DNA of 64,000 bases. Origin: Candidatus Bathyarchaeota archaeon. GTDB taxonomy: Archaea > Thermoproteota > Bathyarchaeia > Bathyarchaeales > Bathycorpusculaceae. Below are positions 4,257-21,778 of the stretch, piece after piece. Positions within the stretch are counted from its first letter, which is position 1; every line of letters begins with the position of its first letter. Below the pieces are notes generated by a model. That model searched no databases. It worked only from the letters and a program-made list of their open reading frames with translations, and had not been told where the DNA came from. The stretch covers positions 64,001 through 128,000 of the forward strand of contig CAWFFH010000004.1 in NCBI GenBank assembly GCA_963815095.1. The letters are read 5' to 3'. Made by a program: the position numbers and the translations under genes.

Positions 4257-5387
4257 ATGATGGCGGCACAAACAACCGAAAGACAAGAAAAAGGTCAAAC
4301 AATCGCACATCTAACCAACCAAATACAAAGATTCGACAACTACCACTATGTAGTCAAATCACAAAGCAGTGAAGCAAGCTATAATGTAAACAAAGAATAT
4401 GGTTCATGGAGATGCAACTGCCCCGATCACTTCTACCGACACGTAAAATGCAAACACATCTATGCCGTTGAATTTTCAAATGAACTAAGACTAAAAGTAG
4501 AAGCCAAAAGAATAGTACCACTCGGCAACCTATCAAGCTGTATCCACTGTGGCTCAAGCAACATCGCAAAAAAGGGCTTACGCAAAAACAAATGTGGCAA
4601 CCTTCAGAAATTCTATTGCCTCGACTGCAATAAATGGTTCACTTTCAACATTGGCTTTGAAAGAATGAAACACAATCCTCAAGCAATCACCTCAGCAATG
4701 CAACTCTACTTCAGCGGAGAATCACTTAGAAATACAGCCGAATCACTCAAACTCTTAGGCGTAGAAGTATCTTATCGAACAATCCTAAACTGGATAACAA
4801 AATACGTCAAACTAATGAAAGAATACACAGAAAAAATAACTCCTGAAGTCAGCGACACATGGAGAGCAGACGAACTCTGGATAAAGGTCAGTGGAAACAT
4901 GAAATACCTCTTCTCAATGATGGATGATGAAACAAGATTTTGGATAAGTCAAGAAGTGGCAGAAACAAAAGACAAACACGATGCACGAAAACTGTTACGC
5001 ATGTCAAAAGAAGTTTGCGGAAAAACACCTAAAACCTTCATAACTGATGGGTTAAAATCCTACCATCAAGCATTCAAAAAAGAATTTCAATCATCCGCAA
5101 ACTCAGAAAACAAACATATCAACGAAATCATGCTCAAAGGTTCAGTTCACAACAATAAAATGGAGCGCATGAACGGAGAAATCAGAGATAGAGAAAAAAC
5201 CATGCGAGGACTAAAAATTAACGAAACATCAATTCTCCAAGGAATGCAACTTTATCACAACTACATTAGACCGCATATGGCATTAGACGGCAAAACCCCA
5301 TCAGAAGCATGTGGAATCACGATTGAAGGCGAAAACAAATGGAAAACCCTAATACAAAACGCAAGCCGAAACAACCCAAAAACTTAA
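4257..5387 (+). CDS. IS6-family DDE transposase with N-terminal SWIM finger and Zn ribbon
   Basis: SWIM CNCPD...CKH; CIHCGS...CLDC; DDE motifs WRADELW, FITDGLKSY, NNKMERMNGEIR. Confidence 0.92.
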   Translation: MMAAQTTERQEKGQTIAHLTNQIQRFDNYHYVVKSQSSEASYNVNKEYGSWRCNCPDHFYRHVKCKHIYAVEFSNELRLKVEAKRIVPLGNLSSCIHCGSSNIAKKGLRKNKCGNLQKFYCLDCNKWFTFNIGFERMKHNPQAITSAMQLYFSGESLRNTAESLKLLGVEVSYRTILNWITKYVKLMKEYTEKITPEVSDTWRADELWIKVSGNMKYLFSMMDDETRFWISQEVAETKDKHDARKLLRMSKEVCGKTPKTFITDGLKSYHQAFKKEFQSSANSENKHINEIMLKGSVHNNKMERMNGEIRDREKTMRGLKINETSILQGMQLYHNYIRPHMALDGKTPSEACGITIEGENKWKTLIQNASRNNPKT

Positions 5388-5421
5388 ACATAGAACGCTT
5401 CTAAAATCAACAAGGATTCGC

Positions 5422-6288
5422 TTGAGGACAAATTACCTCTTCCTAAAATACAGAATTATCAAACACAAGAGAGCCCTAAAGTCGGCTGGTTTTGTTGTTT
5501 TGTTGGCAATAATAATAATTGCTGCTTTTGCAGTTACTGTAAATGTTTTAGAAATAGAAACACCATACTTCAACCCACCACCAGAAACAGTTTGGCGCTA
5601 TTTCACACTTACTTATCCACAAAATAGTCCTAATGGTCAACCTCTCACCGTATCAGTAAACTTGACAACACGAGGCGATTTTGCTGTGGGACAAAAAACA
5701 TACATGTATGTAAGCGGCAGTTTAGCAAACAATCTTTTTCAAAATTTATCATTTGTATATCCTTGGGGTTATCAACCAGACAACAATAGCCTCGCATATC
5801 TTGGAGCTATTTCAAATTTAACTGGTATTATGGTAGGATTTGCTGGTGCACCAATATCGACCAATGCAATAGGGTTGCTGCCCTATTTAGCCAATCTGCC
5901 ACCTGATATTCCTAGTCCCAATTTTAGCACATATAGTCCTGTTGGAACAGCAGTACAGCTTATCGCAAATTACACGAACCCTAATTTGCAACAAGGAAAT
6001 AGCTTCGGTAATAATGGAATGTCTGTGGGGGCTCTTACGCAAGAATTAACTTGGACAGCTCAAGGAGATTATCACCCAGAAATTACCTTTTACACAGGCT
6101 CAACTTGGCAAAATGTGGACACTGTTTACAGCAATATCGACATCCATATTGATTCATCAGACGTATTGACTACAGCACGATATAATCGAATAAGTGAAGT
6201 TCTGACAATAGTTCTAGTTATCTTTGCTTTTGTAGAGGCAATTAAGCTAATTCATGAAAACTTCGTAAAACATTACCCAATGAGTTAA
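5422..6288 (+). CDS. Membrane-anchored hypothetical protein (passenger)
   Basis: N- and C-terminal TM helices around an Asn/Thr-rich domain with NxS/T sequons. Confidence 0.7.
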   Translation: MRTNYLFLKYRIIKHKRALKSAGFVVLLAIIIIAAFAVTVNVLEIETPYFNPPPETVWRYFTLTYPQNSPNGQPLTVSVNLTTRGDFAVGQKTYMYVSGSLANNLFQNLSFVYPWGYQPDNNSLAYLGAISNLTGIMVGFAGAPISTNAIGLLPYLANLPPDIPSPNFSTYSPVGTAVQLIANYTNPNLQQGNSFGNNGMSVGALTQELTWTAQGDYHPEITFYTGSTWQNVDTVYSNIDIHIDSSDVLTTARYNRISEVLTIVLVIFAFVEAIKLIHENFVKHYPMS

Positions 6289-6512
6289 TTGTCGTTCCAA
6301 TACCAATAAGCAATACCTATACAGACACCAGCGGCAATCATAAAGGCAAGGATAATCAAACCGAATATTTCTGGAACAGAATTACCACTGCTTAAAGGAT
6401 GGTAATAGAAAACACAAAGAACTATACAGAGAACAGCTAACACTCCAAAAATTGTTCCGAGCCAAAACCATCCCTCTGCAGCTTGACTATCATACTTTCC
6501 CATCTTATGCAC
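6285..6512 (-). CDS. Small two-TM membrane protein (passenger)
   Basis: Two hydrophobic helices; SD-like GAGGA before GTG. Confidence 0.6.
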   Translation of the reverse strand: MHKMGKYDSQAAEGWFWLGTIFGVLAVLCIVLCVFYYHPLSSGNSVPEIFGLIILAFMIAAGVCIGIAYWYWNDN

Positions 6513-6680
6513 TCCTCATAATAAAAAAGAAAAACCCCTCAGAGCCATACTTTTCTTTTAAAATAAGTTAGCCCGAATGCCTCAGATGACGACTTTTCAC
6601 AACGAGATAAGATTTGAAAGATAAAAGTTCAGATGACGAGAAGTTCACAAAACCTTTTAGGCACAACAAACAAATTCTAC

Positions 6681-7100
6681 ATGGGACCAACAATGGCAAA
6701 AGTAACACGAATAGGCGTAACATTCCCACCCGAACTCCTCAAAGACTTCGACGAAATCACCACAAAAATGGGCTACGAAAGCCGTAGCAAAGCCATCCAA
6801 GACGCCGTTAGACTCTATGTTTCCGAGCGCAAATGGGTTAAAGAAGAGAATGCCCAGCAAACAGGCGTTCTATTGATGGTTTACGACCACGACACAAAAG
6901 GACTAGAAAGCGACCTTACCGAAGCACAGCATCACCATACAGAGATGATTACCTCAAGCATGCACATACACCTCGGCGAGCACGACTGCCTCGAAGTCAT
7001 CGCCGTTAAAGGCAAGGGCTCAGAAATCAGGCACCTAAGCGACCACTTAGCCTCAAGAAGAGGAGTAAAAATCCTCAAATCAATGATAGTTTCCGTTTAA
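6681..7100 (+). CDS. nikR: Nickel-responsive regulator NikR
   Basis: RHH N-terminus (RIGVTFP...SRSKAIQDAVR) and Ni-site residues QH...HIH...C. The track start at 6633 lies inside the TIR, so the real start is 6681 or 6693. Confidence 0.93.
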   Translation: MGPTMAKVTRIGVTFPPELLKDFDEITTKMGYESRSKAIQDAVRLYVSERKWVKEENAQQTGVLLMVYDHDTKGLESDLTEAQHHHTEMITSSMHIHLGEHDCLEVIAVKGKGSEIRHLSDHLASRRGVKILKSMIVSV

Positions 7101-17671: not shown

Positions 17672-17704
17672 TTTTAAATAGTTGTAAATCTGATTGTATT
17701 TACA
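17672..17704 (+). promoter_or_regulatory. TATA box plus palindromic operator TGTAAAT-N8-ATTTACA
   Basis: TTTTAAATA at 17672-17680 followed by an inverted repeat at 17683-17704, just upstream of the HTH gene. Confidence 0.6.
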
Positions 17705-17711
17705 GAGCGTT

Positions 17712-18194
17712 ATGGCACCAACTTGTTCCATCTCCTCACCCTTAAGTCAAAGCCAAAGAGACATTTGGCAACTAATCAGTACAGGCCTTTCCGTAACCAA
17801 AATCGCTGAAAAACTCAAAACCACCCGCCAATACGTCAACCAAACCCGAATAGCAACAGAAGCTAAACTAGCAACAACCCTTCTAGACGTCGCACAAGTC
17901 AACGACCTCCAAATAACAAAACTATACCCCAAGCAAGCCATACTCCTTGGCTACCACCCGGAATTAAAAAAGAAAGCCATTATTACCTACACCACCAGCC
18001 ACGGGCTCAAAGTATGGTACTGGCACGACAACCCTCAAGAAGTCACAGACACAACCTTCCTAAACCAAACAAGACAATACCTAATCGATATCGCTAAAGA
18101 ACGAGGAATAGAAATCGACGGCTCTAAGTCAATTCATCCTGCCAAACTAGCACACATGATTTTCTCACAACTTATTCCAGAGTTGAAAACATGA
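17712..18194 (+). CDS. HTH DNA-binding protein (LuxR/sigma70-region-4-like N-terminus)
   Basis: LSQSQRDIWQLISTGLSVTKIAEKLKTTRQYVNQ; ATG 17712 preferred over TTG 17694. Confidence 0.75.
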   Translation: MAPTCSISSPLSQSQRDIWQLISTGLSVTKIAEKLKTTRQYVNQTRIATEAKLATTLLDVAQVNDLQITKLYPKQAILLGYHPELKKKAIITYTTSHGLKVWYWHDNPQEVTDTTFLNQTRQYLIDIAKERGIEIDGSKSIHPAKLAHMIFSQLIPELKT

Positions 18195-18500
18195 CAGTAA
18201 AGAAGAGTTTGGAAAATCGCATTCGAGGTTGGTTTCCCAAAGAGCCCGTCTTTGGCAGCACTCAAACCAAGAGTAACGCACATATTAGCAAAGAAATTAC
18301 GGAAACAAAAAGAATCGGTTTAAGGATTCTTGACGTTATCGGAATTACTCTGTTGGGATTCTCCAATTTACGTTTATTTGGTTGACACTCATGCATGGCG
18401 TCTGGCATGGGTTACGAATGTGTCTTTTGTTGTTATCGGAGTAATTGCAATCGCTTTGACTATTTTCATTTGGGGAAGAGCCCGAAGACAAATGAGTTGA
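18191..18500 (+). pseudogene. Frameshifted two-TM protein with N-terminal IRGWFPKEP motif
   Basis: ORF 18191-18385 continues in the +1 frame from about 18360 (PIYVYLVD...VVIGVIAIALTIFIWGRARRQMS) to TGA 18500; ATGA overlap with the HTH gene. Confidence 0.6.
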
Positions 18501-18504
18501 AAAC

Positions 18505-19482
18505 ATGAACCTGAAGAGCAGCATTATCAATTTTATTCGAGGATGGCTTCCCCAAGAACCAATTTTGCCCGCCCACGCTCTGCCAAACCAAAAGAAAACA
18601 GGCAGAATACGATTAATTTTGCTAAACGTGTTGATATGTTTTCTAGCAATTGCTGGTTTGTTGTCAGCTATGATACTTATTGACTCATGGATAAAACTTG
18701 TCCTTTTAGGCTCAATTTTGGTTGGCGGATTAGTTTGGCGTTTCACTCATGGAAACGTAAAGAAACCCCTAAAATTTTTTGTAATTGTAGTCCTTATTTT
18801 CTCGATAAGTTTTACTGCTGTTGAATTCAATTTGACTTGGAATGCGGGTTATCCGCCTACTTATACATTAGCTCAACCGGGTATCACTATTTCAAAAGCA
18901 AATATTCTAAACACCTCTCTAACCCAGATTGTGCAAGACATCGAAAGAACACCTGCCTACGAGCTTCTAACAATCCAATTTGGAGCTACGACCGCTGAGA
19001 CAATCAAATTGGACACAGCATTTCCTTCTCGTGGTGGATTGGTCCAAGTGGATTTTTACGGAAAGAACTCAGACGCATATTTTTACTTCAGTTCAAGTTC
19101 TGGTAATCCTTACCATGTGAACGTTGGCAGTTCCAAAACTACTTTGACCACTAGATTCCATCCGCAAGCACAGCCAGCCAAAGACTCATTTTCTCAAATT
19201 GATGACTTAGGTCTTCAATGGTTCTATGATCGCTCCTTAGAGATAGCCCAAAACAGAACAGGCAGCATTCCAAAAATCGATGCGCTGTCCTTCACGATGA
19301 CATTTGAAGACAATGGCTACATTGGCTTTGACAGAACACACATAAGCTATGAAGGCATAACAGTACAAATCACCGGAAGTCAACAAACAATCTTGGCAGA
19401 TGGAAGTATAACTGGTCACGGGGTTCTAATTGCAGATTTTGAGCCCAACGGAACCCTAATTTACATGTCACAACCACAATAA
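18505..19482 (+). CDS. Membrane protein with N-terminal IRGWLPQEP motif, three TMs and an extracytoplasmic domain
   Basis: Translation and hydropathy read by eye. Confidence 0.75.
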   Translation: MNLKSSIINFIRGWLPQEPILPAHALPNQKKTGRIRLILLNVLICFLAIAGLLSAMILIDSWIKLVLLGSILVGGLVWRFTHGNVKKPLKFFVIVVLIFSISFTAVEFNLTWNAGYPPTYTLAQPGITISKANILNTSLTQIVQDIERTPAYELLTIQFGATTAETIKLDTAFPSRGGLVQVDFYGKNSDAYFYFSSSSGNPYHVNVGSSKTTLTTRFHPQAQPAKDSFSQIDDLGLQWFYDRSLEIAQNRTGSIPKIDALSFTMTFEDNGYIGFDRTHISYEGITVQITGSQQTILADGSITGHGVLIADFEPNGTLIYMSQPQ

Positions 19483-19791: not shown

Positions 19792-20838
19792 ATGGTGAGA
19801 TATGTAGGAGTAGATGTTGGCAAAGCCAAATGCAGAGCAGCAATAATGAATCAAACCGGCGCCATCGAGAGCGAATTCTTCTTTGAAAACAACACTAAAG
19901 GAATAGAGTCTTTGACGTCTATGCTAACTGTTGAGGATCAGGTTGTTATGGAATCTACAGGGAATTTGTGGCTAAGCATATACGATGCATTGGATAATAG
20001 AAGCATTAAGGTAGTGCTGGCTAATCCATTGAAGACTAAAGTGATAGCTTCAGCGAAAATAAAAACTGATAAGGTGGATGCTAGGATTTTGGCGCATTTG
20101 CTGAGAGCTGATCTTGTTGCTGAAAGCTATGTTCCGCAAGGAAGCATACGTGAAATGCGAGGTTTAGTTAGGCATAGGCTGAGCTTGGTTAGAATGCGCA
20201 CGGCTATAAAGAACAAGGCACATGCAATCGTTGACAAGTATAGTTATCGTTGTGAATTCTCAGATATGTTCGGTAAAGGTGGAATTGCTTGGATGAGGTC
20301 ACTGATACTTAATGAGCTTGATAGACTGATTTTGGAAAACCATCTTTCGCTGATTGAATCTATTAACTTGCAGGTCGGGATGGTGGATAAAGCTATTCGA
20401 AAAATCGCTTGTGAGGATGAGGATGTTCGGTTGCTACTTAGCTTGACTGGTGTTGATGTTTATGGTGCATTGTTGATTCATAGTGAAATTGGTCCGATAA
20501 CGCGGTTTAGTAGTTATAAGAAGTTGATTTCTTGGGCTGGTTTGGCTCCGTCGGTGCATCAATCTGGGAATGTTGAGTATACTGGTAGGATTACTAAGCG
20601 TGGTTCTAGCTTGTTGAGGTGGGTTATGGTTGAGGCTGCGAGGACTGCTGTGCAGTATCATGAGAAATTGGCTGGGTTTTATGAGCGTGTGAGGGCTAGG
20701 CGTGGTGATCAGAAGGCTGCTGTTGCTGTTGCTTGTAAGATGCTTAAGATTGTTTGGTTCATGCTAAGTAGGCGTGAGGTCTATAGCTGTGCTAATACGA
20801 GGCGTTATGGAGAAAAGCTAAAAAAGATTGGTGCGTAG
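19792..20838 (+). CDS. IS110-family DEDD recombinase/transposase
   Basis: YVGVDVGK, VVMEST, KTDKVDA (DEDD) and GLAPSVHQSG (catalytic Ser region); SD AGGAG. Confidence 0.96.
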   Translation: MVRYVGVDVGKAKCRAAIMNQTGAIESEFFFENNTKGIESLTSMLTVEDQVVMESTGNLWLSIYDALDNRSIKVVLANPLKTKVIASAKIKTDKVDARILAHLLRADLVAESYVPQGSIREMRGLVRHRLSLVRMRTAIKNKAHAIVDKYSYRCEFSDMFGKGGIAWMRSLILNELDRLILENHLSLIESINLQVGMVDKAIRKIACEDEDVRLLLSLTGVDVYGALLIHSEIGPITRFSSYKKLISWAGLAPSVHQSGNVEYTGRITKRGSSLLRWVMVEAARTAVQYHEKLAGFYERVRARRGDQKAAVAVACKMLKIVWFMLSRREVYSCANTRRYGEKLKKIGA

Positions 20839-20975: not shown

Positions 20976-21778
20976 ATGTTGACTTGGATTAGTCAAGATT
21001 TCTTTACGAATAATCTTTTATGTAATCCAAATTTGTTATTAATTATGAGCAATTTAACTAAGAGTTTCTCGTTGCTAATTATACTAGTTTTAGCAGCGTC
21101 AATAGTGATCATAGTTAAACCTTCAAGTGCTCAAACAGCCACTTCTATGCCTTCAAATATTCCTATACCTGTAAGACCAGAGTTTACCTTACAACTTATT
21201 GGTCCGCCTTTTGTTGAGAATACCACTTATTCATTAGACCCCAATACGGGACAAATTGTTGCAAACATTGGCTACACTAACCCATTCAGCATTGTTGAAA
21301 TAATTATCAAGAATCAACCTTTTACTCCATTTAACGACAATCAAGGTAATCCTATTTCAATGTTCTATAATGTTCAAGTGGCAGTTCATAACCAAACAGA
21401 TAGCTGGATTAGTCTTTATGACCCGATTCTGGCGACCTTGCACCAAGCACTGCTGATTCTGATTACACCAATATATCATTGTGGTTGAATAACGGTCCGC
21501 TTCCTGTCGGAACTACTAATATTGATGTTCAAGTCGAGGCATTCATAGGTTATGTTCATAAAAGTAATGAGGGATATCTTGCGGGTTGGGTATTTACTGG
21601 TGAATCAAACGGTTGGAACACGCAAACAGTAACTGTACCTTCTAACACTCCCTTAAGTGTTAATTCACCAAACACAACTAACTCAATTGGCAACCTAATC
21701 ACTATACCTTTGAGTACATTAATTGCGATTTTTACAATATTCTTAACCATTATCGTTGTTCTGGCACTTGCTTTTTAG
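20976..21778 (+). pseudogene. Frameshifted secreted/surface protein with C-terminal TM anchor
   Basis: ORFs 20976-21488 and 21479-21778 join if one base is added at GACCCGATT (about 21424); signal peptide, PxRPEFT motif, C-terminal TM. Confidence 0.6.

Follow-up and report, generated by a model that had tools for sequence, protein, structure and literature searches.

A shared N-terminal peptide as a candidate docking tag between unrelated membrane proteins and a co-transcribed DNA-binding protein in Bathyarchaeia

Why should two membrane proteins that are otherwise unrelated begin with the same 19 residues, and why should both follow the gene of a small DNA-binding protein? The question is raised by a locus at positions 17672–19482 of a 64,000-nt stretch of DNA (the window, whose numbering is used throughout) from a Candidatus Bathyarchaeota archaeon with a genome of 2.69 Mb (GCA_963815095.1; contig CAWFFH010000004.1, positions 64,001–128,000). 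Here, the gene of a 160-residue helix-turn-helix (HTH) regulator, P0001 (17712–18194, + strand), is followed on the same strand by two open reading frames, ORF2 (18191–18500) and ORF3 (18505–19482). Residues 1–19 of their products, MTVKKSLENRIRGWFPKEP (18191–18247) and MNLKSSIINFIRGWLPQEP (18505–18561), both fit MxxKxxLxxRIRGW[FL]PxEP, and we refer to this element as the tag. An earlier account made from the letters of the window alone, the sequence-only reading, held that the two proteins are unrelated apart from their N-termini, and this is borne out: ORF2 and ORF3 can be aligned over the N-termini only (BLASTP, 37% identity over 60 residues, E 3e-8). From sequence comparison and a model of the complex, we consider it reasonably likely that the regulator represses its own operon and that its C-terminal domain docks the tags on the membrane proteins transcribed with it.

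The tag is tightly linked to the regulator. In a six-frame translation of the genome, the pattern RGW.P..P occurs three times, in the two window genes and in one gene on another contig (C5). All three matches directly follow one of the two regulator paralogs of this genome (100% and 77% identical to P0001), which excludes chance. The sequence-only reading had asked whether proteins with the motif are N-terminally tagged, membrane-bound, and encoded downstream of this HTH family. They are: when 42 regulator loci of ~8.5 kb were scanned for RGW.P on both strands and both flanks, all 92 matches lay downstream of the regulator and on its strand. Among public regulator loci, RGW.P-tagged frames follow the regulator in 39 of 40, and the one remaining locus carries NGWLP, a variant of the motif, at offset −3. 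The first tag begins no more than 12 nt from the regulator stop codon in 36 of 41 loci, and three of the five exceptions have an interrupted regulator frame. A single tag is present in 15 of the 42 loci, two in 10, three in 10, four in 3, five in 3, and none in 1. Five other whole genomes were searched with a degenerate DNA pattern of the tag core, which gave 14 matches in four of them and 0 for the reversed-pattern control; all 14 lie 0–6 kb downstream of a regulator match, eight of them consecutively in one genome (G157). The fifth genome (G098) had no match with the strict tag-core DNA pattern. No further gene is conserved across the loci, and the downstream neighbors vary.

What is conserved in the tag is its peptide sequence. 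The 72 tags whose start codon lies exactly 11 codons before RGW have the consensus M-N-V-K-K-S-L-E-N-R-I-R-G-W-[FL]-P-[KQ]-E-P. Within this set, the third positions of the invariant Gly13, Pro16, and Pro19 codons hold 0.06–0.22 bits, and Arg12 is encoded by both AGA and CGN. Third codon positions are therefore nearly free, which indicates that selection acts on the peptide and not on DNA or RNA. Tags from the same array are as far apart in amino-acid identity as tags from different genomes (0.577 versus 0.578), and they share only slightly more codons (0.46 versus 0.41, a value reached in 16 of 1000 permutations). Gene conversion between the tags of one array was considered and rejected, as same-array tags are no more alike as protein. 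Judged from these comparisons, the tags are of old origin and have been maintained by purifying selection.

The same figures bear on a different account, in which the shared 5′ ends are recombination sites for the shuffling of gene cassettes and are conserved as DNA. Several later cassettes do carry a relic of the 3′ end of the regulator gene just before their ATG (tt-att-cc-GAGTTGAAAAC-ATG, up to ~25 nt; L009:5427, L012:5103, L038:5873, and L035:5142). Such relics suggest that recombination at the regulator–tag junction brings cassettes in or moves them. A site conserved as DNA is nevertheless hard to reconcile with nearly free synonymous positions and with same-array tags that barely exceed others in shared codons while equaling them as protein. 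No recombinase is linked to the loci either, and we regard this account as extremely unlikely.

The bodies behind the tags vary widely. Once the tags were removed, 90 bodies fell into 34 clusters, 19 of them singletons. Given this, the free synonymous sites, and the equal divergence of tags within arrays, simple duplication does not account for the similarity; it was an outcome that the sequence-only reading had named as one that would count against it. A Pfam cut-off is reached by one of 75 tagged proteins (NosD), and none of the 75 matches an anti-sigma family. The ORF3 body is found in 7 of 301 Bathyarchaeia genomes, the genome of the window included. Within arrays it belongs to a nine-member body cluster, and all nine members are tagged. 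Eight ORF3 homologs from other genomes align only from residue 27–41 onward and have short, untagged N-termini; outside arrays, 8 of 8 homologs are untagged and none lies downstream of this regulator family, and three genomes with untagged homologs have no regulator match at all. A protein search with ORF3 residues 1–40 returned only five close ORF3 relatives, but this search is word-based and unfit for counting tags.

As a separate observation, untagged ORF3-body homologs at two loci (L065 and L068, in genomes G032 and G090) lie 3′ of an ArsR-like HTH protein with membrane segments, which resembles a 226-aa protein at 6232–6912 of the second regulator locus of the present genome (L001). The ArsR-like protein and the untagged ORF3 body may constitute a second, different regulator pairing.

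On which side of the membrane would the tag lie? The first transmembrane segment (TM1) of tagged proteins starts at median residue 46, and Lys plus Arg are more abundant on its N-terminal side in 64 of 73 tagged proteins, with 3 showing the opposite and 6 ties. This preference of basic residues for the N side of TM1 points to an N-in topology, with the tag in the cytoplasm. Helix and strand both remain candidates for its shape: the helical hydrophobic moment of residues 2–15 is 0.45 versus 0.33 for shuffled tags, the 95th percentile being exceeded by just 3% of tags, and the moment at 180 degrees is higher (0.66).

We then consider the protein that would read the tag. Its true start is not TTG 17694 but ATG 17712, which gives a protein of 160 aa, the typical length of the best relatives (159–183 aa, most 160). 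An AlphaFold2 (AF2) model, with a predicted local distance difference test score (pLDDT) of 87 and a predicted template modeling score (pTM) of 0.77, consists of three helices, the third of them long (residues 39–63), then four strands and two helices. An HTH with a stem helix (residues ~8–63) is thus followed by a β4-α2 C-terminal domain (residues ~65–160). Homologs number 1378 proteins at E ≤ 0.001 in a large protein collection, the best 120 of which are 79–100% identical, and a search of 1.84 billion proteins gave no more than 98 representative clusters for the family at E ≤ 0.001. It is present in 91 of 301 sampled Bathyarchaeia genomes and in 21 of 107 genera, some genomes having several paralogs. 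One regulator clade (L055 and L056, in genomes G002 and G063) stands alone beside metabolic genes, with no tagged membrane gene.

The DNA-binding half resembles that of the archaeal proteins Tfx (1nr3) and EnfR (TON_1525; 8hno), both of which have the same N-terminal HTH and long stem helix. A family profile search matched EnfR (8hno_A) at E 1.3e-6 over residues 4–57 and Tfx at E 0.004 over the HTH only. In a fold search, residues 8–58 matched 8hno_A with Z 8.5 and an rmsd of 0.9 over 51 aa, and sigma region 4 and LuxR-type domains came next at Z 7–8. Pfam and NCBIfam gave weak, HTH-only matches: P0001 scored 16 bits with GerE (PF00196; cut-off 23.5) and 16 bits with the Tfx model TIGR00721 (cut-off 60.25), the latter over residues 10–44 only, and a relative scored 17 bits with the EnfR model against a cut-off of 260. 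The LuxR/GerE-type HTH (PF00196) was matched by 20 of 39 relatives at E ≤ 0.05 (best E 1.3e-6), the window protein itself remaining below the cut-off. Sigma70_r4 was found in 6 and Sigma70_r4_2 in 2 of the 39 members, these region-4-type matches being the only sigma matches, and Pfam TFX_C matched none of the 39 at E ≤ 0.05. Because the HTH and stem match, the whole-protein score falls under the cut-off, and the modeled C-terminal order differs, we describe the DNA-binding half as Tfx-like but would not place the protein within the Tfx family.

The second half of the regulator has no recognizable relative among the structures searched, in agreement with the sequence-only reading, which had described an HTH protein with an unrecognized C-terminal domain: Pfam matches the HTH only, and the best fold-search hit of the C-terminal domain against the Protein Data Bank (PDB) has Z 3.8, with no chain at Z ≥ 5. 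This search lists no Tfx or EnfR chain, although an absent row does not exclude the family. Neither the whole regulator nor the C-terminal domain had a Foldseek match in the PDB at E ≤ 0.001, and a protein atlas offered nothing usable for the domain or for ORF3 (best 0.77). A PH/EVH1-like identity was entertained and dropped, as the matches are too weak to use (Homer3 2p8v, Z 3.5; Dcp1 5j3q, Z 3.3; RanBP3 2y8f, Z 3.3). Modeled alone, the domain again reached a pLDDT of 87 and showed the order β-β-β-β-α-α. In EnfR, by contrast, the C-terminal "note-head" has the order β-α-α-β-β (PMC10570040). A further difference is that no tagged membrane partners have been described for Tfx or EnfR.

To what would such a domain bind? 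We modeled the regulator, with an alignment of 39 rows, together with the first 40 residues of ORF2, with an alignment of 62 tag N-termini. Three runs gave interaction prediction scores from aligned errors (ipSAE) of 0.67, 0.61, and 0.65 (median 0.65), and the best of three controls gave 0.00. Of 157 solved complexes, 116 score at least this high, as do 2 of 215 mismatched pairs; these counts are only rough here because custom alignments were used. At least 63% of the contacts agree between runs. We know of no similar solved complex, and a pass owing to model memory therefore seems unlikely. The modeled interface places tag residues 10–17 (R-I-R-G-W-F-P-K) on regulator residues 90, 100–109, 111, 120, 123, 142–145, 147–148, and 151, a surface made up of the last strand (K-V-W-Y-W-H-D-N-P-Q) together with the C-terminal helix. 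Two of its residues, W102 and F151, do not vary in any clade, and P143 is nearly invariant. The proposal of the sequence-only reading that the tag is a docking peptide is thereby favored, with the tag modeled on invariant residues of the C-terminal domain; its comparison with extracytoplasmic function (ECF) sigma/anti-sigma pairs stands as an analogy only.

Diverged tags are found beside more distant regulators. In addition to type A, the type of the window, we distinguish tag types B (Y-L-G-W-C-P-G), C (W-C-x-Q-P-x-R), D (A-C-P-F-P-P-G), E (I-x-P-P....T-x-G..F-x-P-S), and A′ (R-G-Y-L-P). A tagged membrane gene of type B, C, D, E, or A′ lies immediately downstream in 17 of 20 distant regulator loci; in a second batch, 15 of the 19 evaluable loci had tags, and their type again matched the features of the regulator itself. 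When 401 Thermoproteota genomes were searched with a C-terminal-domain profile, 22 had matches, 7 of these genomes being from outside the class, and six of six out-of-class loci have the same layout, with RGWLP, [FI]CRIPP, FCRL, or AWCPK tags. One body can be found with either of two tags: a β-helix membrane protein carries RIRGWLPEEP beside a type-A regulator, and its homolog carries RFVEWCQQP beside a type-C regulator (bodies at E 3e-14). Two tag types also coexist in single genomes, each beside its own regulator (A and E in G157; A′ and B in G231), which is hard to reconcile with one general cellular reader.

This diversity also informs the question of whether the conserved N-terminus could act in cis as a nascent peptide, for example in translation arrest or as an attenuation leader. 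Its extreme N-terminal position and W-x-P..P core would suit such a role, and proline-containing arrest peptides provide a comparison. However, every member of an array is tagged and not just the first gene, and the quite different tag types track the regulator clade, whereas a ribosome mechanism predicts no co-variation with a DNA-binding protein. We hold a nascent-peptide role to be very unlikely.

Several points weigh against docking of the tag by the regulator. The complex score is the model's own confidence, and a pLDDT of 47–50 for the tag partner leaves its own fold uncertain. On a maximum-likelihood tree of 39 regulators, 10 of which were labeled type A by clade alone with their context unseen, the seven tag labels need six changes, which is the minimum (shuffled mean 17.9; 0 of 200 shuffles as low). 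Tag types are thus each monophyletic with their regulator clade, and the co-variation could in part reflect shared operon descent; because relatives in the tree share labels, independent tag-switch events are few. Some regulators (L053, L055, L056, L080, L081, L094, and L095) have no tagged neighbor. Evidence of expression is weak, consisting of short contigs ~95–98% identical to the regulator and ORF3 in two RNA libraries (peat and wetland), a slight hint that close relatives of both genes are transcribed. Lastly, with one regulator and one to five tags per mRNA, simple sequestration would leave little free repressor, and further control of tag exposure would therefore be needed.

Part of this list would be expected if the tag were a sorting, processing, or quality-control signal for some other reader, and the clade match arose from operons that duplicated and diverged as units. 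One regulator clade per tag type leaves few independent events, the tag–regulator contact is a modeled one, and regulators do exist that stand alone. Such a signal fits poorly with the co-occurrence of two tag types in a single genome, where each is strictly next to the regulator of its own type, and with the absence of the tag from homologs that do not adjoin a regulator. Nor is any other gene conserved in the loci, and in the model, whose controls scored 0.00, the conserved core of the tag rests on regulator residues that are conserved as well. We judge a separate reader quite unlikely.

C-x-x-C...C is present in the C-terminal domain of every regulator except those of types A and A′ and the one at L073, which have none. 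On the tag side, Cys occurs in types B, C, and D and at the out-of-class Cys-type loci, in many cases right after Trp; type-A tags have Phe or Leu at this position, and type-E tags have no Cys. In our alignment (A1), the three regulator cysteines fall at V111, T114, and T120 in the window regulator. Residues 111 and 120 belong to the modeled interface, and residue 120 touches tag residue 15, the position of Cys in GW-C-P tags. We hypothesize that in the Cys clades three regulator cysteines and one tag cysteine may form a metal site, in place of which type A would have an aromatic contact; the hypothesis draws on one evolutionary transition and the complex model. More tentatively still, and with more doubt than conviction, we put forward an orthogonal tag–reader family in Thermoproteota, into which any membrane protein could plug by way of its clade's peptide, with a shared metal or iron–sulfur site in older Cys clades and a W-[FL]-P contact in the clade of the window. 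If true, the shared Cys site would make docking redox- or metal-sensitive.

What would the regulator control? A TATA-like box read from the sequence, TTTTAAATA (17672–17680, + strand), precedes a perfect 6-8-6 palindrome, GTAAAT-N8-ATTTAC (17684–17703), which resembles an operator; it separates the TATA box from the ATG and covers the site where transcription is expected to start. Both elements had been noticed in the sequence-only reading, with the palindrome at 17683–17704, and both recur elsewhere. Of 42 loci, 36 have the strict form GTAAAY-N8-RTTTAC ahead of the regulator gene, in most cases 7–12 nt from the ATG, and in 31 of these 36 a TTAAAT-type box starts exactly 10 nt 5′ of the palindrome. 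Archaeal repressors usually act at sites between the TATA box and the start codon. The placement of a conserved palindrome in this interval therefore argues for autorepression. EnfR is a dimeric repressor that acts on a promoter pseudo-palindrome (PMC10570040). The genome of the window has four strict palindrome matches, two of them at the two regulator promoters, with ~1.5 expected from base composition. A regulon beyond these promoters was considered and rejected, as the other two matches (C3:235735 and C3:1307287) lack TATA context and their number is that expected by chance.

We therefore propose the following mechanism. Most likely, judging from the position and conservation of the palindrome, a 160-aa DNA binder of the dimeric Tfx/EnfR-like type represses its own operon at the transcription start. 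Its C-terminal domain would grip the tag core R-I-R-G-W-[FL]-P, as the comparative evidence and the model suggest, and a cytoplasmic 19-residue tag would head every membrane protein of the same mRNA. Binding of the tag would tether the regulator at the membrane or occupy it there, and the amount or state of the tagged proteins would in turn feed back on transcription of the operon. The tag would be portable, such that unrelated membrane proteins may join the system by acquiring it, with each regulator clade reading its own tag type.

The linkage, the co-variation, and the complex model would be the same if the regulator were instead an escort or chaperone for tagged N-termini before or during membrane insertion, and only its client-free form repressed; escort and sequestration fit the same data. 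The ORF2 ATG overlaps the regulator stop codon (ATGA), a sign that translation of the first client is coupled to that of the regulator, and an escort would account for the range of unrelated membrane proteins served by one regulator. A parallel would be bacterial secretion systems, which have chaperone-coupled regulators. Yet some genomes that lack the regulator encode untagged homologs of the ORF3 body, so this body needs no escort, and the C-terminal domain is unlike known chaperone folds. We view an escort function as unlikely.

How does docking of a repressor on membrane tags compare with known systems? Like ECF sigma/anti-sigma pairs, the locus encodes a small factor with a sigma-region-4-like HTH that is co-transcribed with a membrane protein whose N-terminus is cytoplasmic and is proposed to hold the factor, and the outside parts of the partners are variable. 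Unlike an ECF sigma factor, the window regulator (160 aa) has no sigma-2 domain and a different C-terminal domain, and the element carried by its partner is a 19-residue tag instead of a folded anti-sigma domain. Furthermore, there are up to five tagged proteins per regulator in the fetched loci and eight tag matches in one genome, and the tagged partners are unrelated to each other and often polytopic, with tags portable between protein families. To our knowledge, archaea use no sigma factors and have no sigma/anti-sigma systems and few two-component systems, and archaeal links from membrane events to transcription are, as far as we know, largely obscure. Another parallel may be Mlc, which in Escherichia coli is held at the membrane by PtsG, a repressor docked to a transport protein. 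By analogy, the soluble repressor described here would be inactivated by docking on the cytoplasmic face of a membrane protein; the families are unrelated, however, and the docking surface of PtsG is a folded domain of one specific partner instead of a short tag common to arrays of unrelated proteins. We found no description of this regulator–tag system in the part of the literature that was searched in full text.

The two membrane proteins of the window differ in their state. The sequence-only reading described a tightly coupled pair, and both genes are present, but ORF2 is not intact. Its frame (18191–18385) reaches a stop codon at 18383–18385 after 64 aa and contains only the tag and TM1. 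Relative to intact homologs with two transmembrane segments (~100 aa; L027:3927–4232 and L018:4480–4797), ORF2 has one extra C near 18363, such that the second transmembrane segment lies in the +1 frame and ends at TGA 18498–18500. A 418-nt contig from a DNA sequencing run covers 18123–18540 and is identical across the frameshift, and an assembly slip is therefore improbable. This run may come from the source sample of the window. No sequencing run contains more than a quarter of the words of the stretch, and the uncovered parts carry no information. ORF3 encodes 325 aa with ~3 transmembrane segments; hydrophobic windows at ~31–63 and 85–94 follow its tag, and the C-terminal part of ~215 aa should lie outside the cell. 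ORF3 matches no Pfam family above the cut-off.

The genes surrounding the module in the window are ordinary housekeeping genes. An IS110-family transposase gene (DEDD_Tnp_IS110 and Transposase_20) lies at 19792–20838, ~300 nt 3′ of ORF3, and may have cut a tagged array short. At 20976–21778, a secreted or anchored protein appears to be split into two overlapping frames (170 and 99 aa), which could be a second frameshift in the stretch. The second module copy of this genome, on contig C5 (L001 4026–4951), has the 77% identical regulator paralog, the same TATA box and palindrome (GTAAATATAGAGTTATTTAC), and one tagged protein of 149 aa with several predicted membrane segments. Farther along the same locus, 5338–6183 encodes an intact 281-aa protein built like that at 20976–21778, to which it has no tblastn similarity at E ≤ 1e-4. 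The secreted protein and the ArsR-like membrane protein of this second locus were considered as a conserved downstream partner and discarded, since they recur in few loci only.

The locus is one example of a widespread module in which a portable peptide appears to connect uncharacterized membrane proteins to a dedicated DNA binder, and a regulator that grips a shared tag, as the comparison with related genomes suggests, would be a means of coupling membrane proteins to gene regulation that has not been described. The authors of the EnfR study described EnfR as lacking an effector domain and suggested an unknown antirepressor (PMC10570040). If docking is true, the tagged proteins would be the kind of protein partner proposed there for Tfx-type repressors, and the tag would open an initial way into dozens of membrane protein families whose function is unknown. 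It would also yield a small peptide–reader pair with several apparently separate specificities, directly testable with synthetic peptides.

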